A stretch of 61,471 nucleotides of DNA, counting the filler. It is 8 parts of 8 records of this genome, joined end to end, with 100 filler letters (N's around TTAATTAATTAA, not from the genome) between each part and the next. Parts side by side here need not be neighbours in the genome. Positions count along the whole stretch, not along the records: positions 41,768 to 49,976 come from SRR15195285_831; 7 more parts are not named here. One strand, written 5' to 3'. The position numbers and the translations under genes are program-made. Shown here in pieces: positions 28,701 through 50,076 of the stretch. The notes under the pieces are model-generated. The model did no database searches, had not been told where the DNA came from, and was given only the letters and a program-made list of their open reading frames with translations. Positions within the stretch are counted from its first letter, which is position 1. Every line of letters begins with the position of its first letter.

Positions 28701-31700
28701 TCCTCCTGCCTCGTCGCAACCCCGTCATGCTTGTAGGAGAGGCAGGCACAGGTAAAACACAGCAGCTTACCGGGAAGCTCCGACAGATGCAAGACGAATC
28801 GGATGGAGATTACGTGTTCACCACGATCTGCTTCAATTACTACTCTGATTCCGGTGCGTTGCAGACGATCCTGGAGGGTGCGCTGGAGAAAAAAGCCGGC
28901 ATTAACTTCGGGCCTAAGGGCAAAGCAAAGTTGATTTATTTCGTGGATGATCTCAACATGCCCCAGCTTGATGCTTACATGACGCAGACTTCCATTTCGT
29001 TGATGCGGACACACTTCGACTATCAACACTGGTACGACCGCTCTAAGTTTACGCTCAAGAATATTCACAATTGCCAATGGGTGTCCGCAATGAATCCTAC
29101 TGCCGGAAGCTCCACCGTCAACCCGCGCCTGCAGCGCTGGTACATGATCTTTGCTGTCGAGCTACCAGGTGCAGAATGCCTGTACGCGATCTACAACACC
29201 TTCTTGGACGGCCACCTGAAAATATTCCCCGAGGAGCTACAGAAGCTGAGTTCTACCGTGATTCGTGCCGCGCTCGCGATCCAGACCCAGGTAGCGCAGA
29301 CTTTCCGGAAGACCGCGGTGAATTTCCACTACGAGTTCAATATTCGGCACTTAACGCGAGTATTTACTGGCCTGCTCAGCTCTCGCCCCGAACAGTTCAA
29401 AGATCCGGACAAGTTCGTCCGCATGTGGATGCACGAGTCCGAGCGTGTGTATGGCGACATTCTGGTCTCATATGAGCACCTTGCGATGTATCAGAAGTTA
29501 GCGCAGGGAGTTGCTAAGAAGCTTTTCCCGTCCGTCAGCGTCGATCGGTTCTACGCCAAAGAAAACCCCGAGCCGTTGATTTACTGCCACTTTGCAGAGG
29601 GTGACCTGACAGACAAGCTGTACGACGAGATCACGTCGTTCGAGACTTTGGGCAACATTTTGAACAACGCACTGAAAGAGTACAACGAAATTAACGCTGT
29701 GATGGACCTTGTTCTTTTCATCGACGCCATGAAGCACATCTGCCGTGTCACTCGCGTTATCAATAATTCAGGTGGTCACGCTCTGCTGGTTGGCGTTGGC
29801 GGGATGGGCAAACAGTCGCTCTCACGCCTTAGCTCATTTGTCTGTGGCTACACCACTGTGCAGATACAGATTAGCCAAGCGTACACCATCAACTCCTCAC
29901 CCGGCCTGAAGGAAGATATCCGCACCATGTACACAAAAGCTGGCTTGAAAGACGAAGGAATCTGTTTCTTGTTCACCGACGCGCAGATCGCCGACGAGAA
30001 ATTCTTGGTGTACCTGAACGACTTGCTCTCAAGCGGCGATATTCCTGGGTTGTTTCTTGCCGACGAGAGAGAGAACGTCATCAACAGCGTCAGATCACGT
30101 GTCAAGGCAGCTGGTATTCCGGAAACACCAGACAACTGCTGGCGTTTCTTCATCCAAACTGTTCAGCAAAATTTGCACATGTGCCTGTGCTTCAGTCCTG
30201 TTGGCGAGGATATGTCGCGACGTGCACGCCGATTCCCGGCCCTCATCAACTGCACATCCATCGATTGGTTCCAAGACTGGCCCCAGAGTGCACTACTCTC
30301 GGTAACACAGAAGTTCCTGAGCAACATTGAGGGCGGTCTTGGCGACGAGGACGTCACCGAGAGCGTCATTAAGTTCATGCCGTGGTCGTTCAACCTAGTC
30401 AACCGAGTGGCCAAAGACTTCAAAGCCGGAGAGAAGAGGGAGGTCTACACGACACCAAAGTCGTTCCTTGAGCTGCTCAGTTTCTACACGACCATGCTAT
30501 TGACTAAGCGCCACGAGACTAACGCAGCCATTGAGCGTCTTGACACTGGGTTGACCAAACTGCTCGAGACCTCTGCTGCTGTGGGCGTGATGGAGGAGGA
30601 ACTCAAGGTCAAGAGTGTTGAGGTAGCTGAGAAGAAAGAGAAAGCCGAGGAAATCGCTGAGGTTGTCGGCAAAGAGAAGGCTATTGTGGACGCACAAGCC
30701 GCGGCCGCGGCCGTCGAGGGAGAGAAATGCGACGTGATTGCTTCAGAAGCTGCCGCAATTCAAGCTTCAGCAGAGAAAGATTTGGAGAAGGCTGAGCCAG
30801 CTGTGCGGGAAGCTGAGGCCGCACTAGACACACTGGACAAGAAGGAGCTGGGTGAGTGCAAGGGCATGGCCAAGCCGCCTGGCGGGGTGGACGACGTTTT
30901 TTCAAGCATCTTGGTGCTGCTCGCGAATGCCGGAGGCGCAAATGACATTGCAACAACCAAGAAAGGCATGCCAAAGGACTTGTCATGGAAGGCCGCGCAG
31001 CTGCTGATGAAAGATGTGGTTGGTTTCATCGCTCGTCTGAAGGGTGTCAAGGGCCTGATCGACACAGACCAGGTGCCAAAGGTAAACTTCGAGCACATAC
31101 GCAGCTACTTGGCAATGGAGCACTTTACTGTTGACATTATCAAGAAGAAGTCGAACGCTGCAGCAGGCTGCTGTGCGTTTGTCATTGCCATCGTGACCTA
31201 CTATGACATTGTCGTCACAGTTGAGCCCAAACGGCAGGCGTTGCGCGAAGCCACGGACAAGCTGAATAAGGCACAGTCTGAGCTCGAGGTCATCAACGCA
31301 GAAGTTGCTGATCTTCAGGCGAAACTTAAGGTTCTTGTCGACCAGTTTGACGAGGCCGATGCTACGAAGACCGCGGCGATTGCAGAGTCCGATGCTTGCG
31401 AGAAGAAGCTTAACCTTGCTCAGCGTCTTGTTGCTGCGCTCGCGAGCGAGAAAGTCAGGTGGGGGGTGGGAATAGAGGAGCTGAAGGCAAGTTACGATCT
31501 TCTGACGGGCGATTGCCTTCTTGCTGCAGCGTTCGTCTCTTACGTCGGACCGTTTACCAAACCATACCGAGTCAGACTCATCGAAGGTGAGATGGCGCCG
31601 TGGATGCAGGCCAACAACATCCCCATGGGCGAGGCAGTTGATCCGCTGAAGGTGATGGTTGATGCATCTGAGGTAGCAGAATGGGCATCTGAGGGTCTCC

Positions 31701-34700
31701 CTAACGATCCGGTCAGTGTGGAGAATGGGACGATCGTTACAAGGTGCACGCGCTACCCTGTCATGATTGACCCGCAGCTGCAAGGTATCGCCTGGATCAA
31801 AGAGCGCGAATCCAAAAAGAACTTGCAGGTGACTCGCTTGACAGCCAAGGACATGATTAACGTCATGGAACGCTCCATCCAGGATGGTCACAGCGTGCTG
31901 ATTGAAAATATGGGCGAGCAAATCGAGCCGGTACTATCCAACGTTGTGGGTCGACGCCTTTTCAAAAAAGGACGCACAATGTACGTGCAGCTTGGCGATA
32001 AGGAAGTGCCTTTCAACAACGACTTCAAGCTCTTCCTTCACACCAAGCTCTCGAACCCGCACTACCCTCCGGAGGTGCAGGCTGAAGCAACGGTGATCAA
32101 CTTCTCCGTGACGGAAAGTGGGTTAGAGGACCAACTGCTCGCGCTCGTGGTGTGCAAGGAGCGGCCTGACCTGGAGCAACAGAAAGCCAAACTGATCTCT
32201 GATCAAAACGGTTTCATGATCAAGATGAAGGAGTTGGAGGACGATTTGTTGCACCGCCTTGCAAACGCCGAAGGAGACATTACAGAAGACGTGGAGCTGA
32301 TCGAGAATCTAGAGGAGTCTAAGCGCATAGCTACAGACATCGCAGAGAAGCAAGTCATTGCCGCTGAGACTGAAGTCACCATCAATGCAGCGCGCGAGAA
32401 CTACCGACCGACAGCTGCGCGTGGTGCCTTGCTCTTCTTTTTGATGGTTAATCTGAACAAGGTACACACCTTCTACCAGTTCTCCCTCAACTCATACGTC
32501 GCTGTGTTCCAGCGGGGTATTGATAACGTTTCCAAGCCTGCGGTGCCCAAAAACCCGTTGTTGCGGATGAAGATGGCGGTCTCTCGTGCCACGAAGAAGT
32601 TTTCATGGTCTGTAGATGTACTCAAGCAGGCGCGTGACGGTGGAGACTTCGGTGGTGGCGGTGTCCCCGTCCCGAAATCCCCTGAGGAGCTCCAAGAACG
32701 GTTGAGCGTGCTAACAGAGAGTGTGCAATTTACAGTGGTGTCCTACATTCGCCGAGGCCTCTTTGTGTGCGATAAAATGACCCTGGCAACGCAGGTGTGT
32801 CTGTGGGTCTTGCGAAAGAACGGCGATCTACCTGCGGATGAAGTAGCCTCTCTCATTTCAGGCAGGCAGGTGGACACTGGTGCTGGGATGTCACAGGTGC
32901 TTGCTGAGTGGCTGCCGGAATCAGCATGGTTCGGCTTGCAAGCCCTGAAAGAGATCCAGGCCTTCGCGAAACTTCCAGATGACATGGACAGCATGCCCGA
33001 GATGTGGAAACGATGGTACGATCTTGAGAAGCCCGAGCTTGTGGACATGCCCAAGGAGTACAAGAACTTCGACGACTGGAAGAAGATTTTAGTGCTACGA
33101 GTAGTGCGCCCCGATCGTGTGACCCCTGCTATGAGTCAGTTCATCAAGGACAGGATGGGAGCAAGGTACATAGACGAGGAAGCATTCAACATGAGAGACT
33201 GTTTCAACGAGTCGAGTCCATCTACGCCGATCTTTTTCGTGCTGTTCCCTGGCGTCGATCCGACCCCAGACGTCGAGAGACTTGGCAACGAGCTCGGTTT
33301 CACCGAGGCCAAGGGCAACTACATTAACATCAGCATGGGTCAGGGTCAGGAGCAGACTGCGGAGCAGAGCTTGGACAATTTTGCCAAGAACGGCGGGTGG
33401 GTGTTCCTGCAAAACGTGCACTTGATGTCATCGTGGCTGCCACAGCTCGAGCGCAAGCTTGAGATTTGCGCCGAAATGGGCCACGACGATTTCCGCTGCT
33501 TCATCTCTGCAGAGCCGCCCATGTTTGCAGGCATGCCAGCGCCGATGGTTAAGACGATACCGGAATCGATTCTGCAGAGCTGCATCAAGGTAGCGAACGA
33601 GGCACCTGTAGATGCCAAGGCAAATCTTCGCATGGCGTACGCGAACTTCAGCGAGGAAAAATGGAGTTCTTGCGGTGCGGACATGAAGAAGGTCAACGAC
33701 TGCAAGAACTGCCTCTTCTCGCTCTGTGTTTTCCACACAATGCTGCTTGGACGCAAGAAGTTCGGATTCGTTGGATGGAGTCGCGTTTACCCATTCAATA
33801 CAGGTGACCTCACTATATCGTCAGATGTCATGGTGTCCTATATTCGCGACAACCCCGAGACCCCATATGCTGACCTACGCTACATATTCGGCGAGATTAT
33901 GTACGGCGGTCACATCACCGACCCGTGGGATCGTCGTGTAGACAACAACTACCTCACCGTCCTGATCGGCGAGCACACGCAAGAGGGCTTCGAATGCATG
34001 CCTGGGTTCCCGCTGCCGAACCCGGCTGAGACAAACTACGACGGCTACCGCCAGTACATTGAAGAAAAGATGCCGCTCGAGGACCCGACGATGTACGGGC
34101 TGCACGCGAACGCTGGCATTGGAAACCTCCTCAACTCTACTTCCGTGCTGTTCAACACCATCATGACGTTGCAGGGTGCAGGCGGCGGAAGTGGCGGCGG
34201 CGTGAAGATGGAGTCGGTCGTAGAGCGCATGGTTGAGGACTACTTAGAACGGCTGCCGGAGAACTTCAACATGTTTGAGATCCGTTCGCGCATTGCTGAG
34301 AAGTCCCCATACGTTCTTGTCGTGCTTCAGGAGATTGAGCGTATGAACGAGCTGCTCTCCGAGATCCGACGCTCGTTGATAGAGCTGCAGCTTGGTCTGC
34401 AAGGTGCTCTGAACATGTCGGCGGACATGGAAACGCTGCAGACCTGTCTTTTCACTACGGCGGTCCCGCCTGGATGGCGAAAGGTCGCGTACGCCTCGCT
34501 GAAGGGCCTGGTTGCCTGGTGGGCGGACATGCAGGAGCGTGTGAATCAGCTGACGGACTGGTCTGATACACTGATTCTGCCGAAATCCGTGTGGATCCCT
34601 GGCCTGTTCAACGCCAACGCTTTCCTCACCGCCATCAACCAGGTGACAGCGAGAAGAGAAGGCCTCCCGCTCGACACCATGGATACCCTTGTGAACGTCA

Positions 34701-35053
34701 CGAGTGTGCTGGAACCGTCAGGCCTAGATGGTGCTGTCGAAGATGGCGCGACCATCCACGGTCTCTACATGGAGGGTGCGCGTTGGAATAGTGAGGAGAA
34801 CGTCATCGCCGAATCTTTCTTGAAGGACTTGCACCCGCAAATGCCGCTGCTCCACGTCTTCTCGAAACAAGCTCCGGCCCTCGAGAATCGATTCTTGCAT
34901 GAAGGCTACTACGAGTGTCCGGTCTTCACTTGTTCGACACGTGGCGCGTCAAACACCAACGCTATCTTCGGTGCGTCGATTATGATGGCGGAGACAGATA
35001 GCAAGGAGCGGTGGATCTCTGCAGCTGTGTGCCTGCTATTCTCTGACGACTAG
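22751..35053 (+). CDS. Axonemal outer-arm dynein heavy chain, alpha-type (kelch propeller + IPT/TIG + filamin-like Ig + motor domain; ODA11/Dyh5-like), 5'-partial; introns 22983-23048 and 23786-23872
   Basis: Kelch repeats (PAPRANHTAT...LYIIGG, PEPRANH), IPT (GPVDGGTELIITGMGF) and filamin-like (DNDDGTYLVTF...NGSPF) domains. P-loops GPAGTGKT, GPAGCGKS, GEAGTGKT, GVGGMGKQS. Other motifs are WGCFDEFNR, HYDWGLR, DGDLDANWIESMNSVMDDN, the stalk coiled coil and the C-terminal GLYMEGARW...YECPVF. Confidence 0.96.
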
Positions 35054-37029: not shown

Positions 37030-40000
37030 TTATGATGCGCTCGGCTTGATTACGAGCATCGCCCCACCGTTCGTGGATCCAGCGATAGACAAAACGGGCA
37101 CTGATGAGCCATGGTTGACGGCGGCCTGTACGCCTTCGACTGCTGGCTGCGTGACCTCAACTTTGGTTGCGTCTAGCCCGAGCTGCGTCCAGTCAATACC
37201 AAGCGTGACATTCGCACTGCCTCCACACCATGACGCTACCACAATCACAGCTTGTTTCTGAAAAGTGACGTATGTGGTGGCTTTGATGTCGGAGATGCTG
37301 CAAACCTTGGACGGAATGTTGGCATCACCCTTGAAGTAGCCTGTGTAATCAGCGTTGTGCGCTACTCCATCTTTGTTGTTCCTTTGCATGCAGCCATCGG
37401 CAGGCTTGGTGGGGTCATTTGATGTTTTCCAATCAAAACCGAAGCAGTCGTCACCCAAGGCACAGCAGTCCACCTTGGCTTGCGCGACAGTCAGGGAGGG
37501 GAACTTCTTGTTGCTACCGGGGGGTCCGCAGTCACCTCCGAAGCCGTAGACTCCGCTGGGCCCGCCCGCAGATCCGACATAGCTGCCCTTGCGTGACGTG
37601 TAGCCGTCCACACAGCTAATGTTCTTGTGGTGTGGCGACGGCGACGGCGGTGGAAGAGACAAACTGACTGGTGAGTCGTCCTCCCACCAGCCGATCATCT
37701 CGGAGTCTTCAATTTTAATCGCATCCCAGAATTTCCAGATCGGCTGCGCAGATCCCGAGTTTCGTTCATAGTTGCCGAACAGCATGCCCTTGATTGCATC
37801 AGGTCCACCAAGGCGATCGCACGGGATGCCATGTATAAAGCCAGAAACATCGGTCAGCCAGTACGCTGAATCGCCGGCCCAGTTGAAGCCTTCTCCATTC
37901 CACGCTGAGTCTGCATACGGGAAGTGCGAAAGGTAGGTGACTGCAGAAGGCGAGTCTGGGCCAATGTTCCCTGTGTGGATATCGATGAGTGGTGCAAACT
38001 TCTTTCCCTCCGAAGCGCGATCCAGCACCTTGCGCACGCGACGCATGCCGCGGCGGTCGAAGTTGATTCCGTCATAGTAAATCCCGTCCATGTGTGGCGC
38101 TTGATTGACCGACCAAAAGGCGCCTTCCAAGTAGTAGTTGAACCACCTCGATGTGCCATGGTCGCAGACGGACGCATCAGTCTCGCCATTGGCAAGTCCC
38201 TGCTGCCAGCACGAGACGTAGTCGTCGATCAGATGCTCGTGCAGATAGGCACCACCACCATGCGCATTCCAGGCGTGGTTAAAGCCAGCTTGAGGGATCG
38301 TGTATGGATCGCCCGATGTCAACACCTGCGCAGGACGGTCGCGGTGACTTCGACAGGAAATTGGCATGCGAGAGTCCCACTCCTCTAGTGTTGGTCGCAC
38401 CTCTCCCTGGAGCGCCTTTAGTGCATACAGCTCCACTACGTGGTTGGTCAGCTCTCGGATCGTGTAACTGTGACGTGCACTCAAGCTGTTAGTGAACACA
38501 AGAGCTATGTTGCCCCTTACACCAGGTGCTTCCGCAGTGATGCTTACTAAAACTTGACCTGGATGTTGAGAGCGTGCGCCTGTTTGGTGTAATCCTCCAT
38601 GAAGTTGACGACGTCCGGCACGAAGGGCCAATTGATGTAAGGGTTTACCTAACAATCATACGTCGCAGAACTATATCAACTACAAGAAGATGGCTTGTGA
38701 AAGAGATCGATTGCCAAGCTTATGAATGCGTCGATGGTATGGTCGAGTATACCATGCTCGGGGTACCGTCCGTGGCATTGTGGATTCCACCGATTCCTTG
38801 GTGAAGAGTCGCCACAGTTACACCCATTTCTGAGACTGCTTCCGGCGTCGTGTAATCCACGCCGCCGTAACCTATGCAGCCATTTTCTGATAGGTTAGCG
38901 CCCATTTCGCTGAGCGAGCTCCACTCGGGCGGTTTAGTGGCATGCAACCTACCGATCTGAAGGTAGCGGGACTTCCAGTGGTGACGGAGGTCCAGAGGCT
39001 TCGATGGTGTGAACGCCATATCAAAGAGGAACTGCACAGGCGCATCCCGTGCTCGGAGTGTGCGCGCGCCCGAGCTCATCTGGACAGTAGAATCATTCAC
39101 AGTTGCACCTGTTTGTGTGGTGTTGGTGTCGGGCGTGGCTGCTGCCCCTCCCCAGCTGTCGGGGATGAACGGAAGCTGCACACCGCATCGTCGTTAATTT
39201 GCAGGACGAACAGATAAGCACTGACAAGCTCTACGGTAGGCAATCGAGCGCTGGCGCACCACGGGGTAGTCCTTTGAGTAATTGGGATTTTCCCAGTCCG
39301 GGCCATCGCCACGGGGGTACACAAAAACACCAGCCTCCACCCGTCCCATCCAAAATCGGTTGTTTCCCTGCCCCTTGTTCCACTTCCAAACCAGGTCCGA
39401 CATGTATTGGCCGTCAACTCCAAAACCACACATCATCTTCGCAGTTTGATTCGTCGCCTGCACGCGGAGTACGATGTCCGACACTTCGACGTCGGCCGCG
39501 GTGGCACGAACAGACACCGAGAACTCCAAGTACGAATCAAAGTCCATTGCGCCAGAAACATTCAGCGCGAGGCCTCCACCCTCTGACTCAGACTGCCACG
39601 TGACTGTCGAGGATGTGTGTGTGAGGATATGAGCTGGTTTCGTTACTGACATCTGTACTGGCTTGCCGCCGACAAGGCACTCAAATGCTACAGGTTCCGC
39701 AAGGACTTCGTAGCCAACGGATGTGTTCTTGCCCTGTCGAAACTTGCGAGCGCTGACAAGCGACTGTGACGGAAGGCCGTTGAGTCCAATATGTGTCAAT
39801 TTGTTGACGACACCGATTGATAAACCAGTACTGGCGCTCGTAGCTGTGAGGTTGGTAAATGGGCGAGTCACTTCGTCGTCCACACCGATCGTCGAGTCAA
39901 GCCACCGCAGCCGGCGCATCGAGTACACATCCTCATCGCCGTGAAGAGGCAGCGGCTTTCCATCACTTGGGACCTTGATCGTCAGTGTCACATGCAGAGT

Positions 40001-41482
40001 CTTTGTGTGTGATGCCCCTGCTTCCGAGGTTGCCGACAGGGTGATTGTGCCCTTGAACGTGCCAGCGGAGGAGATGTCACTCGGCAGGTCGATCCCAAAC
40101 CACAGCGCACCAATCTGGCCAGCACCTACTGAGTAGTCCTTGGTGAACGGTAGGCCATGCTGATCCTTGCCTCCCAGATTAAAGCAGGTCATTGCCGACG
40201 TCGGAATGGCATAGGCACGGCTGCTGGCGTCAGCAGCACCGCCAGCCAAGGCGGAAAAACTCGCACTAATGTTGCGAAGCGCGGGCCCGTTCGCAAACAC
40301 GCCTGCTTGAAAAGTAAAGTATTCTCCAACCATGGCAGTAGCACTAAGTTCTAGCACTTCGCCACCCGGATTGCGCGCCCAATGTGCTGGGACACGGTCC
40401 AGCATCCGGATTGCGTTTTCTCGTGGCTCCATGTAGACAGCCATGCCCTTAGGTACGGTTGCGAGCTCTGACGGGAGTGCAACGAGTTCCTAGTGCATAC
40501 AATTGCAATTGCATCGCCACGTGACAAGAGTAGCAGAGTGAGCCAGGAATACTGCACACCAGCCAAGCAAACATCAAGCCCGCGGGAGTGCCTAACTTAG
40601 CAGCGATATCACAACGCACCATTATCGTGAAGCCGTGAAACGGTTCACCAGTTGGGGTGTGATCGTGCTCGCCGTAAGAATTCGGGCGGTTTTCATAGCT
40701 TACGGCAACAGCTGCCGCAGAAGTGTCGACCGACGCGCAGGCATCCGCTGCTGGAAGCTGCGCTTGAGAGGAGTCGACCGTTCTGTCCAAGACACACTTT
40801 CGCCCGTGCGTTGGATCGGTGCAGTTGAACCAAGTAAAGACCACGCCAGCGCCACCTCCAGTCTGCACGTGCGGCAGGTAGTACACGAAGTAGTCACCTG
40901 GTCCAGCATGAGCGAACTTGACCACGCCGCACTCGCTCTGCAGAGCCGACACCGAGCTTTGCATCTGTGCTCCTGTGGCATTAGTCACCACAACTGCCTT
41001 GATCTCTGGACTATGGTCGCGCCGGCGCCTGGCAGGTGAAGCATCAGAAGCTTAGGGCAAGCAGCGGCATTGCATGTGACAACACAGGACGCCACTAGCA
41101 CCAGCGCTTACCAAAAGATTTGTGCGGTGACCGTGCTGTTGGCCTGCGCTGCCAGCTTGGCCGACACGCGCAGCCGCACGCGCACATCACCAAGCAGGAG
41201 ACCCTGCTTGGACTTCGGTGCTGGTGGCTGCAGCCGGCGCCGACCAGAGCCCGCCTCGCCCTCGAACTTGAGCCCGGGGTTGGGTCCAACAGGGAACGGC
41301 AGTTTGGGGTTGGGCAACGCCCATGGCGCAGCGTTGCTCGCCGCAGGTGTGATGGGCAGGAGTGGGAACGGCGCTGCGGTCGTCGACACTCCCACGGCTT
41401 CATCACCCGCGCTGGCCTGCGATGCATCGCTGAGTCCGCAGCGCTGCAGGGCCAAGAGCAGCCATGGTGCACGAATATACAT
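37030..41482 (-). CDS. DUF6067 / GH123-like glycoside hydrolase domain protein with at least 7 introns; start codon uncertain
   Basis: GT-AG introns at 41111-41029, 40619-40490, 39259-39176, 38952-38872, 38752-38649, 38547-38468 and 38400-38326 join five ORFs into one frame. Motifs IFWRRRD, RLRWLDSTIGVDD, NPYINWPF, KFYYTIREL, YLHEHL, SRWFNYYLEG, DGIYYDGINFDRRGMRRVRKVL, LIDIH. The family name is from recall, not a search. Confidence 0.75.
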
Positions 41483-41667: not shown

Positions 41668-41767
41668 NNNNNNNNNNNNNNNNNNNNNNNNNNNNNNNNN
41701 NNNNNNNNNNNTTAATTAATTAANNNNNNNNNNNNNNNNNNNNNNNNNNNNNNNNNNNNNNNNNNNN
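41668..41767. other. Artificial contig spacer
   Basis: N44-TTAATTAATTAA-N44. Confidence 0.98.
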
Positions 41768-42462
41768 CACACTGCCATTGGCACCGATCATATATGGTAG
41801 GAAGTTCCTATTCGAATATGTTTCTATTCATCGTACGGCGGATCCACAGCTTAAGCTGTACATTCGTTCATGGGACACAGTCGCGCGGATGGGGGGAATT
41901 GCGGCGCGCGAGGCGCATTAAACCAGAGCCTCGCCACCCTAGATTTTCCTAGTAGCACGATCCGGATACCTCTAGCTAGATCGAGGATCCTAGTCCACGA
42001 AATGTAGTGAACAGTACATGAAATTAGCATTGTTGTGCGAAATGATGCAACCGATCACGCGTGCGTCATCTCTCAACTGACGACTCTACTGACCACCAGT
42101 AGAAAAGACCCCTCTGGATCCCGCGTACCCTGACCGCTCGCGCACGATCGAAAACAACCCGAATCTTCCGTCCCAACCCTGGGAGCCAAAGCTCGGGCTC
42201 GAGGGGTTCCGCGTTGCGATTGGTCGAATTGGTGATTGTCAGTGAGATCTCAGTACCGAGCACCGTACTCAACACTCGTACGATACCGACCGTACCGTGG
42301 CAAATTCCGCACTACAATCTCACATTATCTACATACAAAAACAGAAGTTTACAATGAATAGTATACGAGATTGTAACAGCCGACCCGGTACGGTACGCAG
42401 AAGGACGAGGAGGCCCTGCCCGGGGTTGGCTTGGGGGAGGGGGAGGAGGAGGAGGAGGAGGG

Positions 42463-45400
42463 ATGCGGCAGAGCCAGATGAAGGACGAGGATCGCCTCGG
42501 CGAGATCGACGACCTGCTGGGCGAACTCGACGCGGGAGATGGGGCCGCCTCGATGCGGATGGTGAGCCTGCCCGCCCGCCTACCTGCTTGCCACGCGATG
42601 GATGCGACAGGGTGAGCTGGCTGGCGGGCTGATGCGCGCTGTGCTTTGGGCGGCTGTTGCGTTTGTTGCGGGGCAGTCGACCATACACGCCGGCCCGACG
42701 ATGGGCTACGACGAGCGGCAGGCGCACGAAGATGCTCGAGAGCAGGACGCACTGCGCGGGTCGCGGCTGCCTCCGCGCTACGGCCAGCAGCCGGCTGAGC
42801 GTGCCTCGACGCCGCCCCGCGCCGGCCAGCGCGGTGGCCCTGGCCGTGGCGCTCCGCCTGGCCAGCGCGCCACGACCCCCCCGCGTAGAGCGGGCAACAA
42901 CGGGCCGGGCAGAGCCCCGCCCAAGCTGCCGCCGCTGCCAACGCGACAAGAGGTCCAGAGTGCGAAAAGCAGCAGACCAGACGATGCCCAGGCGGCCGCC
43001 GAGGCATTTCGTCGGGCGGATACGGACGGCAGCGGTGGCCTGGACAAGGGTGAGGTCAGACAGCGCCTGCACGATTACGGCCTGACCAACGTTTCGGCGC
43101 AGTACATCGACGGCATATTCTCGGTGTTTGACATCAACGGCGACGGCGTCCTGAGCCTGGAAGAGTTCGAGAAGCTCCACGATATGGTCATCAAGCGGCA
43201 CGAGGAGCAGTGGGCACGGCTGGAGAGCGGTGACACCGGCGCCCTCTGCCCGACCGGAGGTGGCGGGGTCAAAGTGCTGCACAAGGATACGAGGCCCTTG
43301 GCGTTCTACGAGAAGACTGGGCTGTTGATTACTGCGCTGGCCTTTGCATTCATTGGCCTCGGCTTCTTCATGAAGTCCCTCAACGAAGTGCAAGAGATGG
43401 CCAAGCAATGCAAGGCCGACATTTGCCAGAATGGAGCTAGGTGCGTCGACATCCTGCTTGGCAGCGAAGAAGCAGGCACAGCGCAGTACGAGTTCCAATG
43501 CGTGTGCCATGCTGGCTACGACGGGTCGACGTGCGAAGAAGACATCGACGAGTGCTCTTCGGCACCCTGCCAGAACGGCGGAGCGTGCACGCAGGGCGTG
43601 GACGAGTACGCCTGCACCTGCGTTGCTGGCTTTGTCGGCCAACGCTGTCAGACTGACATCGACGAGTGCCAGTCCCAGCCATGCATTAACCGCGGCACCT
43701 GCAACCAGCAGACGCAGTATGATCCTGCGTACACGGAAAGCCCGGACCCTCCCCTGGGGAGCTACACTTGTACGTGCCAGGACGGCTATGCAGGCGACAA
43801 CTGCGCAGACATTCTTCCAACGCGCCGATTCTTTAGCTTGCGTGCACCGTGTGTGGAGACGCAGTGCAACGACGTGCGCACTGTAGACAGCGCGACAGAA
43901 GTACTTGGGGCAGCTTTCGGTGTGCACGACGACAATCTGGTCGAGATGAACATCACGCGTTTCGATGGGGATGGGGACGGCCGCAGTGATGGCGATATGG
44001 TCAACTTCACCCTCAGTACGTACAGTGATGACATCAACGGGATGACGGTGTCGCACCTGTTGCCCGCGGGGTGGCGCGTGCTTGAGGCGGAGATCCAGGC
44101 GTGCGATGAGGCGCGTAGCGTGGACGCCCTATTCCCCAGCACTACGGACTGTGTGGCTCTGGATCCTGCCAACCCCACCGATAATGCAACGTGCAACGCT
44201 GTCAATGGCTCTGACCTTCGGACAGCGACTGCCTGTGAAGCGGTCAGGAGTTCCGCCGATGCAACACAACCAGCATGCGAGTACCTCTCAGATCGAGCAA
44301 CAAACATCATAGAATGCATTTCAAACTACGGCCAACTGAGGGTCGACGAAGACCTAGACTTATACATCCTCGAGGATTTGTCTAGTTCATTCACCGATGA
44401 CATTGACAGCCTAGCGGCACTCAGCCGGAAGTTCGTCTCCACCCTGGACCTCATGTTCAACTCCTACCGTGTCGGCATCGGGAGCTTTGTAGACGTGGGA
44501 GGATACTGCTTCAGGAATGATTTCAGCATCGCTGCGCTCACAGCTGAGGAACTACAGGACAGTATGAGCGAACTGCAAGTCTCAGGCCAGGGTTACTCTT
44601 GCCCGCATCGCGACCCAACCGACGGAGAGGCTATGACCACTGGCTTGTTCCAGGTTGGGCAACAGCACGCAGAGATCGGGTTCGACAGAGATGCGATGCG
44701 TGTTGTCTTGGCGAGCACAGACGACTTCTTCAAATTGGGCCCAGACGGTGACGATCACACAGCCGACGGGCAAGATACTGGTTGCGATGATCCTACAAGA
44801 TACTGCTCTAGAATCAACAGCATTGCAGAAGTGAACGCGTCGCTTCGAACCAGCAATCCACCGATCCGGCCAATCTTCGCTATTGCAGATCCAATAGATC
44901 TCGAACAGTATCGAGGAACACCAGATGAATGGCTCATCCCATACATGCTCGAACAGGACGAACGGAGAATAGAAGCGTACAGAAGTGTTATGACCGCACT
45001 CGGATACGACGCAGAGAAGTTCGTGACGAAGCTGTCATCAGACTCTTCCGATTTCGTTGAAATTGCTGTCATCGCCCTGCGTCAGGCAGTGGGAGACCTA
45101 CCAGAGGAGTGCCTGCCGGCTGACGAATGCGCAGTGCCGAACCCTTGCGGCCCATCGGAGTGTGTGGCAGTTTCTTCCAGCGAGATTTCTGCCGACGACG
45201 TCTCAAACTGTGCTAATGTGACGGGTGTCGCACTCGGTAATTCAAGTGCATGTGATGCGATCGTGATGGAGAACAATCAAGCGGAGCGGGCGTGCATGTA
45301 CCGATCACCCTCTTGCTACGACACACCGTACGGGCCGAAAGAGTGCACAAATTGCCCACTAGGTAGAGCGATGGACCCGACAACTGGTGGTTGTGATATC

Positions 45401-46915
45401 AATATCGATGAGTGCTGTAGTAGTCCTTGCAATCACGACGGCGCCTGCATTGATGGAGATGACCAGTACACTTGTGTGTGCACGGACGGTTGGGAAGGAT
45501 CCAACTGTGCTGTAGACACAGACGAGTGCGAGACTGCTGGATGTCAAAACGATGCTCTCTGTGTGAGCTCAAACATCTCAGATGCGAACAATCTTATTGC
45601 ACCAAATGAATTCGAGTGCATCTGTGTCGTCGGGTACTCAGGCGAGCTCTGCAGCGTCGATATGAACGAGTGTGCGAGCGGTCCGTGCGAAAATCGGGGG
45701 GCGTGTAGTGAAAGCAACACAGATGCCACCATTGCAGTAGATGACTGGACATGTGCGTGCGTGGCTGGTTATGAAGGCGACGACTGCAGCATTGACGTTG
45801 ACGAGTGTGCCAGTGAACCTTGTTTGAATGGTGGGGTCTGTGATCAGCCTGCTCCTGATCTTTTTGGCTGTGAGTGCACCACCTCGGACGAATTCTTTGC
45901 CGCGCACTACGAAGGCGAGTTTTGCGAGATTGAGCTGCCGATTGACTACACATACTTGGTCGTTGCCGTCGTGTCCGGCATTGTGCTGATCATCTCTACC
46001 TTCCTGGCGTGCTGTTATTATCACCATAAAAGCAATCTTGTGGTGTTCACAATCGAGACGCTCGATCGTGCTGACGGAGCAAATGGTGGTGAAATAATAG
46101 TCGAGATGCGCATGAAGACCTGGAATACGATCTATGATGTCCTGGCCGAGCTTGAGAGGCGTGAGCGCATTAGCAAGAGAGAGGCTAGGCTGTTCTTCAC
46201 GCCTCCTAGTGACGAGAGCAGGGACGACAGTATGCTCAACCCGAACCCCGATGGACCAACGCTTGCTGAACTCCATATCGTGACGGGATCAGTAGTGAAG
46301 CTGCTTCAGGTCTGGACAATACGGGTTAAAGACATGGGGGAGGGAACGGAGTATGAGCTACCGGTTGTAGAAAGGTAAACGATTGTCAGAAATGCGCGCG
46401 TCGTCAGCAGCAGCGTAGTGAGCAGCGGAAGCATCGCTGCTAACAATGAGGGTCGTGTTGCGTCATGGCTGCAGGCACTGGCGAGTACAGTCTGTGAAGA
46501 TGGCTGCCCAAGATGTCTCAGGAATTATGGCGTCGACTATGACACTCACGACAGAGGACTTAACTCCCCTTGAAGATACGGTGAGTTGGAACTGGAATGC
46601 TGCGAACTAACCTTGACGGCTCCCCACAATCCTTTGATGACTGTGCTCTCTTCGCAGACTGTTCTGAATGCGCATGCCATGTTCCTGCTGCAGGAATCTC
46701 TCCCTTCGTATACCTCGATTAGGAACGGCTCCATCTTGAATATGCATGGTCAACGCCCGGTGCAGAAGGTGGAACCACCACCACCGAAGCCAAAACCGAA
46801 GCTCGCAGCGAATAGCGTTGTTACAATGGGTAGGATGTTTGAAAAAGGCGAAATTCCCGGTAGCCATCTGAGCGATCTGCAGGAGGCGGACTTCATCCGC
46901 GGACGATGCTCATAG
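42463..46915 (+). CDS. Two-pass membrane receptor: cytoplasmic EF-hand pair - TM - 3 EGF - integrin beta I-like vWA - 5 EGF - TM - two ubiquitin-like domains; introns 42562-42676, 46375-46474, 46581-46693 (alternative acceptor 46657)
   Basis: EF-hands DTDGSGGLDKGE and DINGDGVLSLEEF; TM1 LLITALAFAFIGLGFFM; cbEGF repeats such as DIDECSSAPCQNGGAC. The vWA domain reads DLYILEDLSSSFTDD...YRVGIGSFVD...STDD...PIFAI. TM2 is LVVAVVSGIVLIISTFLA. Ubl1 is TIYDVLAELERRERISKREARLFF...TLAELHI, and Ubl2 is assembled across two introns. Confidence 0.85.
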
Positions 46916-47120: not shown

Positions 47121-49976
47121 TCAACGATGTAAATCGTCACGTCGAGAAGGCGAAGACATGATCCTTCGCGTTGCTTGTCCTGTGGCTGCACCGCTCCTGC
47201 AAACAAACACGCGTATCAGGCCACAATATATCAGATACGGTAGGTCAGATGCTAGGTCCCACTTCGCACATCGTAGCGTGGCGCCGATTGGCGAGGCAGG
47301 TCAGCTCACCCGAACGTAGCAATCGATGCGGCCGCCAGTTCCTTCTCGACCCGACGAAGCTGGTTCTCCACTTTGGCACGTGCGCGTTCTGCCTCCAGCA
47401 TTCGGTCGTGACTAACCGACTCCTTTCCAACGGCATCGGTTAGCCTCTCCTCGGCAAGCCGTAGTCGAGTTGACTGTGCTGCAGCAGCTGCGTCTCGTTC
47501 TGTTGCAAAGAGGGAACTTCGCAATTCTGCAACACAAACGATGTATCAGATATACGGATGGATCTGGCACGGTAGAGCTTCTATGAAATTCAGCGTGCTC
47601 AGATTCTCACCAGCCTCAGCAACTGCAGCGGCAACCTGTTGGTCTGCCGCCTGTTTGGCAGCTTCCGCATGTACCTGCATCCGTACCACCTCAGTCTCTG
47701 CCTCTCGCAGTGCGTCTGCAAGCCGTGCACTCTCTGCTTCGATACCCTGTCGTGCTGCAGCACCTGTCGCGACCTCTTCGCGGGCTGCCACAAGATGATC
47801 TTCGGCCGTCACCAGCTGCTGCTTTGTCACTGCTACACTCGTCTCGAGCCCCGCCGCTTTCGCCTGTAGCACTCCGACGGCTTTCAACGAGCTGGTTGCC
47901 TCTGCCACAGTCGCCTCCAGTTGCTCATTGGCTGACCGTACGCCTAGCAGCTCCTCGCGGTATCCTGCTGCTGCCTTCTCAGCCTCAGCACGCCGCTCTG
48001 TCTCCTGTTGCACCTGTGCAGCTGCAGCTGCCTCCAGCTCACGACGTGTTTGTTCGGCTTCCGCTTTGACAGCCTCGATGGCCACAACTGCCTGCTTTTT
48101 CATTGTACCGAGACCTAGCTCCGCCTGAGAATAGACGCTTTGCATTTCACTGATACGATTTCGCAGTGTTGAAACTTCTTGCTCAGCAACCTTTGCACGC
48201 TCGTATGCCACGTCTCGCTCTTCTGACAGCACTGTGTGTACCTCATAGGCCTGGTCATGCATCTGGTACAGGCCACGCTGCGCCACAGCTGAGTCTGTCT
48301 CCATCTGCTTTAGGGCTCCCCGCAGTATTGTTACCTCCTCTTCAGCCAGCATCGCCGTCTCAAGCTTTGACTCTGCGGTAAGTCGTGCCTCCTTCTCCTC
48401 TGTACAGCTCGCTTGTGCCTCTACGACGTCTTCTGCATACATCTGGGCGCGCGACTGTTCCTCCTCGAGCAAATGTGTCGTTTGTGCCAGTGCAAGCCGC
48501 AGAGCAGCAACCTCTCCGCTTAGCGTTTCGTACTGCGCAGGTCCACGCTCTTCCAGGTCTCGTAACACTGCGAGGCGGCTGCGCTCACGCTCGGCGGCTG
48601 TGGCCTCCGCGTCCTCGCGCAACGCCACAGATCGCGCCAATTGACCCTCTAAAGACTCTCGAAGCTCGACTTCCTCTCTCAGTCGCTCCAAGGCGTACTC
48701 CGCCTCATCCTTCCAGCCTTCTTCTGTGCGAGACATACGAGTCTCCGTCTGTACCATGATGGTTCGCATCCCGCTGTGCTGCTTGGCTCCCTCGTCATGA
48801 TACTGTGCTATATTTGAAACATACTTGCGTGCGTCGATGAACTCCGAGTACAACTCCTCGTCATCCATCATAAGCGGATTTGGTATGTCTTGCACACCAA
48901 AGCCATCGTTACCGAGTACCAAGCCTTCTGCGGCAGCCTGTGCTTCTTGCTCTTCAACGGCCTGGCGTTGAGCAGTGAGTCTTTCTGACTCCAAAATCTT
49001 CAATTTGTCCTGCGCACTATCACGCTCTACGCAAACAGTCTTGAGCGAACTCGCAGCTGCAGCAAGCCGCGTGACAGCCGCAGCAAGTGCTTCGCTGGTC
49101 TCGCGACTCTTTATCTCAAGCTGCTGTCGGTATTCCAACTCAGCTTCGAGTCGTGCCTCCGCCATCGCAGCGCGTTGCTCGTTTTGTGCTGCCTTGGCAA
49201 CTGCTGCCCTTTGCGTCTCCTCACGCTCTGACGCTGTCTGACGCAGTGCGACACTCACTTGCTTCGCCACCTCGCCCTGTTGCACACGCGCAAGTGAAGC
49301 AGCAGAGACCATGGCTTTTGAAAGCGCCGCTTCCACCCCAAGTAGCCTCTTTTCAGCTTTTGCCCTTGCGATGCGCTCCGACGCGTACTTCTCCTGCAAC
49401 TCTTGTGCAGTTGTCGTGCCAGCTGATTCAGCTGCCCGACCCATTGACCTTAGGAGTGAGACTTCATTGCGAGATTCCTCCAGCATCACCTCCACGCGCT
49501 GTCTCGCTTCAACCTCGCGATCTGCAGCATGGATCGCATCCTGTTCGCGCCGTTGTGCAACATGGGTAGCGTCCTCGGCGTTATGCTTGGCCTCGCGTAG
49601 CTCGTCCATCTGTCGAAGCAGCTCTCCGTTGCGCGCGTCCACGCTGATTGATGTTTCACGCGCCGTCTGCAGCTCCCGGCGCAGCGACGTAACCTCTTCC
49701 TGAAGGGCAACCACGACAGCGTGGTCAGCACCACCTGCTCCTGTCAGCACGGGCACATCATACCCAGGTCCAGACGGTGTGGCAATCGTAATCACATCGT
49801 CATTCGTAACTTCAGGTCGAACTGACTGCTCCTGCACTGTGTCTTCTGCAGCCACAGCCGCAGCGGCCGCCTGTGCTGCCGCCACCTGGGCCTCCAGCTC
49901 AGCCTTGGCAGTAGCTGCTTCCGCTGCAGCTGCTTCTGCCGCTGCCTGCTCCTGTGCAGCTGCGACAATCAGTGCA
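47121..49976 (-). CDS. Long Ala/Glu-rich coiled-coil protein, 5'-truncated, about 3 exons
   Basis: ORF 47546..49885 is open to the contig end with continuous heptad-like A/E/R/Q composition. GTGAG donors near 47610 and 47309 continue into ORF 47306..47524 and a short last exon. No family motif is recognised. Confidence 0.7.
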
Positions 49977-50076
49977 NNNNNNNNNNNNNNNNNNNNNNNN
50001 NNNNNNNNNNNNNNNNNNNNTTAATTAATTAANNNNNNNNNNNNNNNNNNNNNNNNNNNNNNNNNNNNNNNNNNNN
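49977..50076. other. Artificial contig spacer
   Basis: N44-TTAATTAATTAA-N44. Confidence 0.98.

Follow-up and report, generated by a model that had tools for sequence, protein, structure and literature searches.

The stretch of DNA analyzed here (the window; 61,471 nucleotides, filler included) carries at positions 42463 to 46915 of its plus strand an expressed eukaryotic gene with a 3.7-kb main exon and a modeled product of 1374 residues; all features described below lie on that strand. The main exon, exon 2 (42677..46374), is an uninterrupted open frame of 1232 codons that is colinear in the orthologues and encodes successively a Pro-rich region, an EF-hand pair, a first transmembrane helix (TM1), EGF domains 1-3, a spacer, a beta-I-like vWA domain, EGF domains 4-7, a second transmembrane helix (TM2), a ubiquitin-like domain (Ubl1), and the start of a second tail module. 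Contigs of RNA-library runs, four runs in all, cover much of this exon at 95-100% identity. Exon 3 (46475..46580) is conserved in P0004 and P0092 and aligns to the uninterrupted tail of P0009, while exon 4 (46694..46915), which ends at a TAG stop, is found in RNA contigs of runs X2 and X4. The preliminary description had called for three introns, of which intron 3 (46581..46693) is spliced in RNA, whereas introns 1 and 2 have no RNA joint. For intron 3, an X2 contig passes directly from 46579/80 to 46693/94, so that 113 nt with GT..AG ends are left out, and continues to 47100; a nearer acceptor AG at 46657 was ruled out because this joint places the intron end at 46693. Intron 2 (46375..46474; 100 nt, GT..AG, phase 2) is supported by the read-through ORFs P0004 and P0092, in which exon 3 is conserved after an unconserved stretch, and one X2 contig follows the genome to 46415 and then diverges. 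The putative intron 1 (42562..42676; 115 nt, GT..AG) has its acceptor at the exact onset of protein conservation with P0005 (QSTIHAGP), and the in-frame stretch upstream is not conserved. The putative exon 1 (42463..42561) runs from an ATG at 42463 to a GT donor at 42562 and has 33 codons that specify an acidic segment without a hydrophobic stretch, but no contig of the RNA-library runs bridges it and its start codon is uncertain. An alternative start is the Met at ~42707 (TMGYDE), where the EukProt model P0101 begins. A further in-frame Met upstream (MRAVLWAAVAFVAG...), which is the gene caller's start for P0002, is signal-peptide-like, and its use would contradict the topology inferred below.

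The whole architecture is conserved at 39-78% identity in P0003, P0004, P0005, P0101, and P0009, and relatives sharing it are confined to marine data and to a pair of single-cell co-assemblies of Picozoa. Of the 24 runs in which part of this stretch is listed, 23 are RNA on record, and most are labelled as marine or seawater metagenomes. Two related clusters have members with the EukProt names of the Picozoa co-assemblies COSAG06 and COSAG04, in agreement with the non-opisthokont host proposed previously. The host is a marine heterotrophic protist, probably a picozoan; the picozoan label rests on these two EukProt names, and single-cell assemblies can be contaminated.

Only two segments of the spliced model exceed a mean hydropathy of 1.6 over 19 residues. 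TM1 (GLLITALAFAFIGLGFFM; 43319..43372) peaks at 2.11 over 19 residues and has a matching hydrophobic segment at the corresponding place in P0003, P0004, P0005, and P0009, while TM2 (YLVVAVVSGIVLIISTFLACCYY, followed by HHK; 45953..46021) peaks at 2.74 and is likewise conserved in the orthologues. Between them fall 66 of the 68 Cys residues and eight of the ten N-glycosylation sequons, and the N-terminus of P0009 is Met-led and polar, without a hydrophobic stretch. A topology with both termini inside is the only arrangement that would place these Cys residues and sequons outside the cell; such a topology had been proposed for this protein, and the distribution of both features bears it out as a prediction, from which a cytosolic position of the EF-hands would follow. 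The predicted extracellular part begins with three EGF domains (43406..43804; Pfam EGF), the second and third of which start with DIDEC, as in the calcium-binding type, and ends with four more (45386..45925; Pfam EGF, hEGF, and EGF_Teneurin stretches) that start with NIDEC, DTDEC, DMNEC, and DVDEC. Over the whole of exon 2, Pfam EGF reaches 101.5 bits in seven stretches. According to the AlphaFold model and DSSP, the spacer (43805..44341) comprises an alpha/beta module (model residues 5-81, at a pLDDT of ~80-90), an acidic loop of low confidence, and a small Cys module of the pattern C..V...AC.AV....AC.Y; it has no Pfam family at E<=1 and aligned to no integrin domain in the structural comparisons. 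A second copy of the small Cys module (model residues 452-500, block-mean pLDDT 67-89), together with a CYDTPYGPKEC stretch, occupies 45098..45385 and also has no Pfam family. The beta-I-like domain thus sits between the EGF arrays and the two transmembrane helices, as originally described.

This domain (44342..45097) is supported by Pfam Integrin_beta (PF00362), a phmmer search of the PDB, an AlphaFold model, Foldseek, and VIA-align. The peptide blocks from which it had first been recognized are all present in the translation of 42566-46378, with DLDLYILED beginning at nt 44351. Pfam Integrin_beta scored 42.8 bits (E 6.8e-11; gathering score 24.8) in an alignment that spans only profile positions 6-52 (47 of 248), and neither PF00092 nor any other generic VWA family was listed at E<=1. 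In the PDB, all 60 matches listed (the best 60 of 69) are integrin beta chains or pactolus, a beta-2-like protein; the best E-value among the matches listed was 1.6e-4, and a second stretch aligned IGFDRDAMRVVLASTDDFFKLGPDG with the IGW..TDD..GDG block of integrins. The AlphaFold model has a mean pLDDT of 80.1, with block means of 81-98 in the domain (model residues 180-431), and the 45 Foldseek matches that are shown from the top 50 ranks belong to integrin beta throughout, with E-values from 2.4e-13. VIA-align superposed the model on beta-3 residues 108-390 with Z 23.9 and rmsd 2.2 A over 204 residues. Against 48,161 representative chains, ranks 1-7 were integrin beta or pactolus (Z 19.6-23.1, rmsd 2.1-3.0 A, 196-205 residues), while the best match that is not of the beta-I type was the alpha-1 I domain (Z 15.6, rmsd 3.2 A, 183 residues). 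The vWA_SIBA-E profile gave the window protein 16.2 bits, below its cut-off of 27. Pfam, the PDB search, and the fold ranking therefore agree with the earlier choice of a beta-I-type over a generic vWA domain, and we conclude that the domain is integrin-beta-type in sequence and in its modeled fold, with a likeness well beyond chance. Motif alignment identified the blocks DLSSS (MIDAS), DD (ADMIDAS), FVD, GE, TDD, and DSS, which are conserved across the family and retain the MIDAS DxSxS with the Glu and Asp completing that site, as well as the ADMIDAS DD. The SyMBS is partly recognizable, as FVD and the Glu are kept, the Pro before this Glu is Gly, and the N-x-D positions are unaligned. The long specificity-determining loop of integrins is missing from the domain in the same alignment, so ligand recognition may differ from that of integrins.

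The predicted cytosolic parts are conserved as well. The Pro/Arg/Gly-rich N-terminal region contains a PxxPxR-like motif, LPPLPTR (42926..42946), a candidate SH3-ligand consensus, whose residues L84, P85, L87, P88, T89, and R90 are invariant in all six rows of alignment A6, including the 39%-identical P0009. The EF-hand pair (42992..43177) has canonical 12-residue loops (DTDGSGGLDKGE and DINGDGVLSLEE) with ligand positions that are invariant in the same alignment, and its earlier recognition is confirmed by Pfam EF-hand_7 (42 bits, cut-off 30), next to 36 bits for EF-hand_1. Two ubiquitin-fold domains had been proposed for the C-terminal tail, and the modeled fold of the P0009 tail, which is 38% identical to the window tail, upholds the first but gives no confident fold for the second. 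Residues 1-98 of that model, corresponding to Ubl1 (46031..46312), have block-mean pLDDT values of 40-90 (at least 61 in eight of ten blocks) and the order beta-beta-alpha-beta...beta. In a wide VIA-align search their top 50 matches were all ubiquitin, UBL, or other ubiquitin-fold domains, the best being ubiquitin itself (Z 12.9, rmsd 1.4 A, 78 residues, 23% identity). All 40 PDB matches of the tail profile were ubiquitin or ubiquitin-derived, with E-values of 0.13-1.6 for single ubiquitin, and Pfam listed no ubiquitin family for the window protein. The second tail module, a putative Ubl2, starts at 46313..46374, continues through exons 3 and 4 to 46750, and is colinear with the uninterrupted P0009 tail. 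Its assignment to the ubiquitin fold was not supported, with a pLDDT <50 and an hhalign probability of 0.1 against Ubl1; the ubiquitin-family leads from the ESM Atlas were all below 0.9. Exon 4 encodes the end of this module, a PPPPKPKPK linker, and a conserved C-terminal motif, ANSVVTMGRMF...IPGSHLSDLQ (46799-46882), of which A39, N40, S41, V42, M45, M48, F49, P55, G56, L59, S60, L62, and Q63 are identical in P0009. As noted before, there is no NPxY, and no NPxF either, anywhere in the protein.

From its domains, we predict that the protein is most likely a cation-dependent receptor for a surface ligand or particle, and we favor, with some reserve, a two-pass adhesion or uptake receptor of the plasma membrane that is built around an integrin-type metal site and is not an integrin beta subunit. 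Both ends would be cytosolic, and the Cys-rich, glycosylatable middle of ~860 residues would form an extracellular loop stiffened by the calcium-binding EGF domains. Like beta-I and other vWA domains, the beta-I-like domain would use a divalent cation held at the MIDAS to bind an acidic side chain on its external ligand, with a surface, colloid, prey, or matrix as candidates. Occupancy or load would then be transmitted via the two transmembrane helices to the cytosolic parts, where the EF-hand pair, the PxxPxR-like motif, the ubiquitin-like domain, and the C-terminal motif may bring in adaptors of the endocytic or cytoskeletal machinery, a response that cytosolic Ca2+ would tune.

It is extremely improbable that the gene model is an artefact in which separate genes or a pseudogene were fused by read-through. 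Exon 1 and introns 1 and 2 do lack RNA proof, and the database proteins are prokaryote-style ORF calls that run through introns; however, the EF-hands through Ubl1 share a single open frame, the same domain order recurs in four other lineages, the whole P0009 tail is one uninterrupted ORF colinear with exons 2-4, and intron 3 is spliced in RNA. Somewhat less remote, but still improbable, is a regulatory or auxiliary subunit, for example the MIDAS-containing vWA partner of an ion channel or of a transporter, or a Notch-like receptor whose cleavage in the spacer frees the ubiquitin-like tail. MIDAS vWA domains do occur in non-adhesive complexes, and proteasome and TFIIH subunits are among the lower-ranked structural matches (Z ~14); the EGF arrays adjoin the unassigned alpha/beta module, and the cytosolic EF-hands hint at a link with Ca2+ fluxes. 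The fold is nevertheless specifically beta-I-like (Z 23 vs 12-15.6), Pfam found no channel, LNR, or other Notch-specific family, and nothing indicates cleavage.

The origin of the domain bears upon the two remaining alternatives. Related domains had been noted in bacteria, and sequence identity indeed places the window domain closer to the Integrin_beta-type domains of bacteria than to animal integrins: it reaches 30-31% over ~265 residues with Methylobacterium and Synechococcales loci, against 19-27% when animal integrins are aligned by structure. The best match outside the family has an E-value of 8.5e-14, 27 of the 68 matches scanned bear RTX repeats, and the nearest non-family ones are Cys-poor; P0014, the best RTX-type match, corresponds to a Methylobacterium sp. 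Leaf118 locus at 100% identity. These matches, together with the DLSxSF motif that the window domain has in common with these loci (DLSxSM in animal integrins) and a careful tree in which the family rises from a backbone of such proteins, are what would be expected if a bacterial domain had been transferred into an EGF membrane protein serving as a non-signalling surface coat or as an adhesin between cells or between cell and bacterium, with cytosolic parts that only anchor or sort it. We consider this unlikely, although less so than the other alternatives, as the gene is eukaryotic in architecture and interrupted by spliceosomal introns, and the cytosolic EF-hand loops, PxxPxR-like motif, Ubl1, and C-terminal motif stay conserved even where overall identity drops to 39%, which points to more than an anchoring role. 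Moreover, the tree does not resolve that backbone, and the AU test did not reject a union of the family with animal integrins (p-AU 0.9), the log-likelihood of the constrained tree exceeding that of the quick free tree by 50. This union may itself reflect long-branch attraction, since the family and the integrins are both long branches, and the tree does not discriminate between bacterial origin and integrin kinship. A divergent but genuine integrin beta subunit, with an FG-GAP alpha partner and talin-type adaptor signalling, would carry the integrin machinery into a lineage related to Archaeplastida, and the beta-I fold, the MIDAS and ADMIDAS residues, and the AU result all speak for it. Against it, Pfam found no PSI_integrin, I-EGF_1, EGF_integrin, or Integrin_b_cyt, all of which were found in the controls P0068, P0087, and P0088; the flanks of the domain contain helices and did not align to a hybrid domain, none of which was found; the alpha-contacting specificity loop and NPxY/F are missing; there are two transmembrane helices with the N-terminus inside; and no FG-GAP protein was present among the 15 large window ORFs scanned. 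This alternative is thus very improbable, and we conclude that the protein is not an integrin beta chain.

Compared with the integrin beta chains of animals and other Amorphea (PF00362), the window protein has the same fold (Z 23, rmsd 2.2 A, ~203 residues) and the same MIDAS DxSxS, ADMIDAS DD, FVD, MIDAS Glu, TDD, and DSS blocks, and in both the domain adjoins Cys-rich EGF-type repeats, is membrane-anchored, and is extracellular, as predicted for the window protein. In contrast, its Integrin_beta score is 42.8 bits vs 236-394 for the control integrins, it lacks the PSI, I-EGF, beta-tail, and cytoplasmic domains, NPxY, and the long specificity loop, no hybrid domain was found in it, and it has two transmembrane helices with both ends predicted inside, cytosolic EF-hands, and a ubiquitin-like domain. 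Ubl1 shares its modeled fold, as seen in P0009, with ubiquitin, ISG15, the Rad23/Dsk2 UBL, and talin F0/F1; unlike ubiquitin, it is internal, directly follows a transmembrane helix, and lacks a C-terminal GG, features that rule out a role as a conjugatable modifier. Outside the family, the closest sequences are bacterial surface proteins with RTX-repeat, Calx-beta, or cadherin-like features (for example from Methylobacterium sp. Leaf118, a Synechococcales MAG, and a Myxococcales MAG), whose domains have the DLSxSF..DD motif and a short loop after FVD in common with the window domain; however, these proteins are secreted, repeat-bearing, and Cys-poor or Cys-free, without EGF domains, transmembrane pairs, EF-hands, or Ubl, and the window family has in addition two probable disulfide pairs and an insert of ~25 residues after PIFAIA. 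Unusual architectures with beta-type vWA domains are also described, in the available portion of Kang et al. (bioRxiv 10.1101/2020.04.29.069435), for eukaryotic membrane proteins, namely the non-canonical integrin-beta-like proteins called 'Type II' in variosean Amoebozoa and the Sib proteins of Dictyostelium; some of these have EGF-like domains and some lack a stalk or NPxY, and its authors hesitate to name them integrins. Those proteins belong to Amorphea, and the same portion of that source makes no mention of EF-hands, Ubl, or a two-pass topology, which sets them apart from the window protein by description. The non-canonical architecture recognized at the outset thus holds, and it places an integrin-beta-type metal-binding domain in a new setting, in which it would be extracellular between two membrane anchors.

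The gene at 42463-46915 on the plus strand is real, expressed and conserved, and it encodes a domain that is integrin-beta-like by sequence and fold. Its core is an uninterrupted plus-strand frame of 1232 codons (exon 2, 42677-46374), around which three introns were placed. Intron 1 (42562-42676) has GT..AG ends, and conservation with P0005, one of the stored database relatives, begins exactly at its acceptor. Intron 2 (46375-46474) and exon 3, which lies between introns 2 and 3, are indicated by the conservation seen in two read-through ORFs (P0004 and P0092) and by colinearity with the relative P0009, whose tail is a single ORF without interruption. Intron 3 (46581-46693) also has GT..AG ends and is proven by an RNA contig from one library run (X2), which joins 46579/80 to 46693/94, continues beyond the stop codon and places the acceptor at the distal AG at 46693, not at the AG at 46657. 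Of the three introns put forward in the preliminary description, the third is therefore spliced in RNA, while no contig bridged intron 1 or intron 2; stretches lacking contig cover were treated as evidence in neither direction. Contigs also had loose ends at 42341, 42493 and 46415, and a second run (X1) showed an apparent 42511>44431 joint carrying 34 foreign letters; we regard these as chimeric or strain variants, not as splicing. Two start codons are candidates, the ATG at 42463 and the Met at about 42707 that opens the EukProt model P0101, and neither provides a signal peptide. Further upstream in the same frame, a Met within the putative intron opens a signal-peptide-like stretch and was chosen by the gene caller for the relative P0002. 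It was rejected as the start because P0005 shows no conservation of this stretch and because the topology would be inverted, landing the Cys-rich EGF/beta-I part in the cytosol. Of the 24 runs listed as holding part of the stretch, 23 are on record as RNA, and most are labelled as marine or seawater metagenomes. Two runs of N, which are assembly gaps, are read as X on translation (about 41716-41770 and about 49976-50020), and one of these gaps lies ~700 nt upstream of the putative start of the gene.

Exon 2 matched the Pfam model Integrin_beta (PF00362) at E 6.8e-11 and 42.8 bits against a gathering threshold of 24.8, in an alignment that spans just profile positions 6-52 of 248, and no generic VWA model (PF00092, PF13519 and others) was listed for the window protein at E<=1. 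A phmmer search of 44312-45124 against all PDB chains returned 69 distinct sequences at E<=10 (best E 1.6e-4), and all 60 of the matches listed from this total were integrin beta chains or the beta-2-like pactolus; here, a second aligned stretch covered the IGF..TDD..GDG block. We then modelled 43805-45391 with AlphaFold2 (529 residues, alignment of 54 rows), which yielded a mean pLDDT of 80.1 and 10-residue block means of 81-98 over model residues 180-431, corresponding to the beta-I-like domain. In Foldseek searches of the PDB, each of the 45 rows displayed from the 50 best ranks was an integrin beta chain (E from 2.4e-13, ~280 columns, identity 16-22%), and VIA-align on Foldseek's list likewise gave integrin beta for all 50 entries shown, with Z 21.9-23.9 and rmsd 2.1-3.7 Å (mostly ~2.2) over ~203 residues, making beta-3 residues 108-353 the counterpart of model residues 180-431. 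Against 48,161 representative chains, ranks 1-7 were held by integrin beta or pactolus (Z 19.6-23.1), whereas the best non-beta domain, the alpha-1 I domain, reached Z 15.6 (rmsd 3.2 Å, 183 residues) and the remaining vWA domains Z 12.3-15.4. As modelled, the window domain is beta-I-like, resembling beta-I domains more closely than alpha-I domains or the rest of the vWA class. The earlier assignment to beta-I rather than to a generic VWA family was thus upheld, as generic VWA scored no better by Pfam, PDB phmmer or VIA-align. An ESM Atlas search with the whole exon-2 protein gave no usable match. The same AlphaFold2 model contains a beta-alpha-beta-beta-alpha module between the first EGF array and the beta-I-like domain (43820-44050, plus strand; model residues 5-81, pLDDT about 80-90), to which neither a Pfam family nor a known fold was assigned.

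To compare metal sites, we aligned motifs of the relatives with those of four animal integrins and of bacterial domains. The window protein and its nearest Cys-rich relatives (hereafter, the window family) keep the DLSSS of the MIDAS followed by the DD of the ADMIDAS, with DLSSSFTDD aligning to the integrin motif, and the GSFVD, STDD and DSS blocks are kept as well. The Glu of the D-x-P-E block is retained in the window sequence as D-G-E, with Gly replacing Pro, and the GE and TDD of the window domain align with the integrin MIDAS Glu and Asp motifs; we take the roles of these residues to be those of their counterparts in integrin beta-3. At the SyMBS (LIMBS), the FVD Asp is retained along with the Glu; the N and D of N-x-D-x-P-E fall inside a family-specific insert, and because this insert precedes the Glu, the N-x-D ligands are not placeable. 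Unlike integrins, the window family is devoid of the long loop after FVD, which is the specificity-determining loop of integrins, and it has a ~25-residue insert after PIFAIA and four family-specific Cys. A small Cys motif, C..V...[A/T].C[E/D]A[V/I]........AC.Y, occurs on both sides of the beta-I-like domain (about 44180-44290 and about 45190-45300, plus strand) without matching any Pfam family, and P0005 has a third copy inserted within its beta-I domain.

The spliced model contains two hydrophobic segments only (residues 248-265 and 1126-1148), between which lie 66 of its 68 Cys and 8 of its 10 N-x-S/T sequons. EGF and beta-I domains require an oxidising compartment; therefore, the N- and C-terminus should both be cytosolic and the EF-hand pair should face the cytosol. 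The N-in/C-in arrangement with cytosolic EF-hands that had been proposed accordingly fits the two segments and the placement of Cys and sequons between them. EF-hand_7 matched exon 2 at 42 bits (cut-off 30), both loops are of the canonical 12-residue type, and their ligand positions are invariant across the six proteins of an alignment of relatives, so that the pair is, by its sequence, a predicted Ca2+ binder. An LPPLPTR (PxxPxR-like) motif in the N-terminal region is also invariant in this alignment. A complex prediction for the EF-hand region, the exon-4 tail and 2 Ca scored 0.02, which speaks neither for nor against binding. Pfam further detected seven EGF stretches on exon 2 (101.5 bits), six of which open with D/N-x-D/N-E-C, the calcium-binding-type start.

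The fold of the cytosolic tail was examined on the uninterrupted tail of P0009, which is 38% identical to the exon-2 tail of the window protein. Mean pLDDT of this model was 54.4 overall, and residues 1-98 formed a beta-beta-alpha-beta...beta unit of moderate confidence, in which 8 of 10 blocks average 61-90 and a loop dips to 40. When this membrane-proximal domain (Ubl1) was compared with the 48,161 chains, the top 50 were all ubiquitin, UBL or other ubiquitin-fold proteins, the best at Z 12.9, rmsd 1.4 Å and 23% identity over 78 residues. A tail profile run against the PDB gave 40 matches, all of them ubiquitin or ubiquitin-derived, with a single ubiquitin reaching E 0.13-1.6 only. Judging from its relative, Ubl1 is a predicted ubiquitin-like (beta-grasp) domain. 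The second tail module (46313-46374, exon 3 and 46694-46750, plus strand) is colinear with the P0009 tail, where it was modelled at pLDDT under 50; hhalign found no likeness to Ubl1 (probability 0.1), and the ESM Atlas returned ubiquitin-family clusters at 0.80-0.85, below the 0.9 lead level. Of the tandem ubiquitin-like domains originally described, the first is thus backed by the P0009 fold matches, whereas the second is not borne out by its pLDDT or by hhalign. The window protein and P0009 also have in common the C-terminal motif ANSV..M..MF....PG..LS.LQ.

A word-indexed search identified four proteins at 55-74% identity. Three of these have 1263-1312 residues and the same precomputed Pfam set, and P0006 (727 aa) is a fragment with Integrin_beta only. 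An exhaustive phmmer search of 1.84 billion representatives yielded 87 proteins at E<=1e-3, of which 11 reached <=1e-10 and 6 reached <=1e-30; 61 of the first 68 also passed the PF00362 threshold, and RTX repeats were present in 27, EGF in 8 and PSI_integrin in 2. In P0009 (1446 residues, 39% overall identity), the EGF and beta-I region is likewise flanked by two hydrophobic segments, and the second EGF array carries an extra Cys-rich insert, CQFPFTYEG..WCPT, which we take to be reminiscent of a fibronectin type II module. Names were looked up for 30 clusters, and an organism was obtained for only a few: the P0005 and P0043 clusters include EukProt proteins of Picozoa sp. COSAG06 and COSAG04, P0073 belongs to a Myxococcales MAG, and the cluster names identify P0054 and P0088 as arthropod integrins. 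The best Cys-poor match, P0014, shares 100% identity with a locus of Methylobacterium sp. Leaf118; this bacterial RTX protein has two tandem beta-I-like domains (L001 1445-2095 and 2444-3094), each ~30% identical to that of the window. A metagenome scan with the six-protein alignment matched EGF patterns only, with 0 of 70 loci containing a beta-I domain, tail or N-terminal region. We infer that the host is a picozoan or a close relative. Picozoa are tiny heterotrophic ocean flagellates, uncultured save for one lost transient culture. The available text of PMC8599508 describes them as plastid-lacking relatives of red algae that feed by endocytosis of nano-sized colloids.

The origin of the beta-I-like domain was addressed with a domain HMM, which matched 110 stored proteins, 99 of them covering at least 70% of the domain. 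A quick tree contained 82 rows after 17 near-identical cluster members were left out, and a careful tree contained 79 after further omission of P0084, P0104 and P0004. In the careful tree, the window family formed one clade (support 98/97) and the four animal integrins another (100/100), both as long branches on a backbone that is unresolved and consists of Cys-poor domains of bacterial type. When the family was united with the animal integrins, an AU test did not reject the union (p-AU 0.9), and the constrained tree had a log-likelihood 50 above that of the quick free tree, which had missed the constrained topology. Since the AU test and the careful tree both show an unresolved backbone, we dropped the reading of the quick tree, in which the family seemed to sit on the bacterial side apart from integrins. 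Measured simply by sequence similarity, the window domain is closer to the bacterial domains (30-31% identity over ~265 residues), and DLSxSF is common to them and the window family, whereas integrins have DLSxSM. Bacterial transfer and ancient kinship with integrins are both candidate origins, and long-branch attraction could be the source of the AU result. Because the AU test does not reject the union and the constrained tree has the higher likelihood, the family might more specifically be a sister group to integrin beta chains, representing a eukaryotic lineage of beta-I receptors that was inherited vertically and has been retained in Picozoa; we consider this unlikely. Were such a sister relationship true, the MIDAS/ADMIDAS head would be older than the split of Amorphea and Archaeplastida-related lineages. 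There would then have been an older cation-dependent surface receptor, of which the canonical integrin (with PSI, hybrid, I-EGF stalk, NPxY tail and alpha partner) would be one later elaboration and the two-pass, EF-hand- and Ubl-coupled form another.

Several other genes are present in the window. A single plus-strand frame of 4018 codons (22997-35053) encodes Kelch repeats, TIG/IPT, a filamin repeat and a dynein heavy-chain motor that is complete (DHC_N2, AAA 1-6, stalk and C-terminal domain), the N-terminus being unusual for a dynein. At 164-5416 (plus strand), a 1750-codon frame combines numerous leucine-rich repeats with an Ephrin_rec_like/TNFR-like Cys-rich module and probably encodes another surface receptor. 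Two minus-strand frames match different parts of GH123_N, 37030-38655 at profile positions 656-889 and 39194-40489 at positions 161-519, and are therefore exons of one glycoside-hydrolase-123-like gene. The large-frame scan also revealed ordinary neighbours, namely a ClpB/Hsp104-type double AAA ATPase (9564-11819, plus), a UBA-domain protein (12526-13497, minus), an OATP/MFS transporter (5698-7455, minus) and a second MFS transporter (13710-15038, plus).

Beyond the domain order, conserved metal ligands, EF-hand loops, Ubl1 fold, expression and cross-lineage conservation observed here, we lean towards a function as an adhesion or uptake receptor. In such a receptor, a hairpin-anchored extracellular loop would be held out by calcium-binding-type EGF domains, the MIDAS would capture an acidic ligand group in a cation-dependent manner, and the signal would pass via the two TM helices to cytosolic modules that may sense Ca2+ and recruit adaptors. 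Integrin-type beta-I domains are treated as a hallmark of animal and amorphean adhesion machinery, with isolated bacterial occurrences. The present results place one in Picozoa-type flagellates, with its metal sites largely intact and its gene expressed in the sea, in an architecture that would couple it directly with a calcium sensor and with a module of ubiquitin fold. This makes the window protein a concrete candidate for a surface receptor in picozoan particle uptake, and it adds a new long branch with which a properly sampled phylogeny could decide between an ancestral eukaryotic origin of the integrin head and repeated borrowing from bacteria. In the main text of openly accessible papers, we found no paper on an integrin in Picozoa, no integrin-beta-type domain described from Picozoa, Archaeplastida, cryptophytes or Telonemia, and no description of the architecture of the window protein. 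The available text of Kang et al. (10.1101/2020.04.29.069435) sets criteria for authentic integrin beta chains and describes proteins of a non-canonical Type II from Variosea. It also reports that the CRuMs taxon Rigifila has a canonical beta chain and that a cyanobacterial homologue has just one of the domains; that text mentions no Diaphoretickes protein of this kind.

The window protein is not an integrin beta chain, as it departs from that class in most of the characters by which membership is judged. Pfam found no PSI_integrin, I-EGF_1, EGF_integrin or Integrin_b_cyt (PF08725) in it, and its EGF-type matches were to generic EGF, hEGF and teneurin-type EGF models only. In control integrins (P0068, P0087, P0088 and P0064, two of which carry NCBI names of arthropod integrin beta), Integrin_beta scored 236-394 bits, PSI_integrin was detected in P0068 and P0064, and I-EGF_1, EGF_integrin and PF08725 were detected as well. 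The modelled flanks of the beta-I-like domain hold helices H27-38, H75-81, H124-134 and H168-175, and in most rows, the chains with a hybrid domain aligned over model residues 180-431 only; in the model, the flanks thus do not appear to align with a hybrid domain, which is weaker evidence than the absence of PSI. The Dictyostelium Sib model vWA_SIBA-E (PF24909) reached 16.2 bits, below its gathering threshold of 27, and no FG-GAP protein was found among 15 large window ORFs scanned. Whereas a canonical integrin beta chain is a type I protein with one TM and an NPxY/F tail, the window protein has two hydrophobic segments and no NPxY/F anywhere in its length, confirming what had been noted for its C-terminal tail. 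It would offer a natural experiment on how a beta-I head might signal independently of an alpha subunit or a talin-binding tail.
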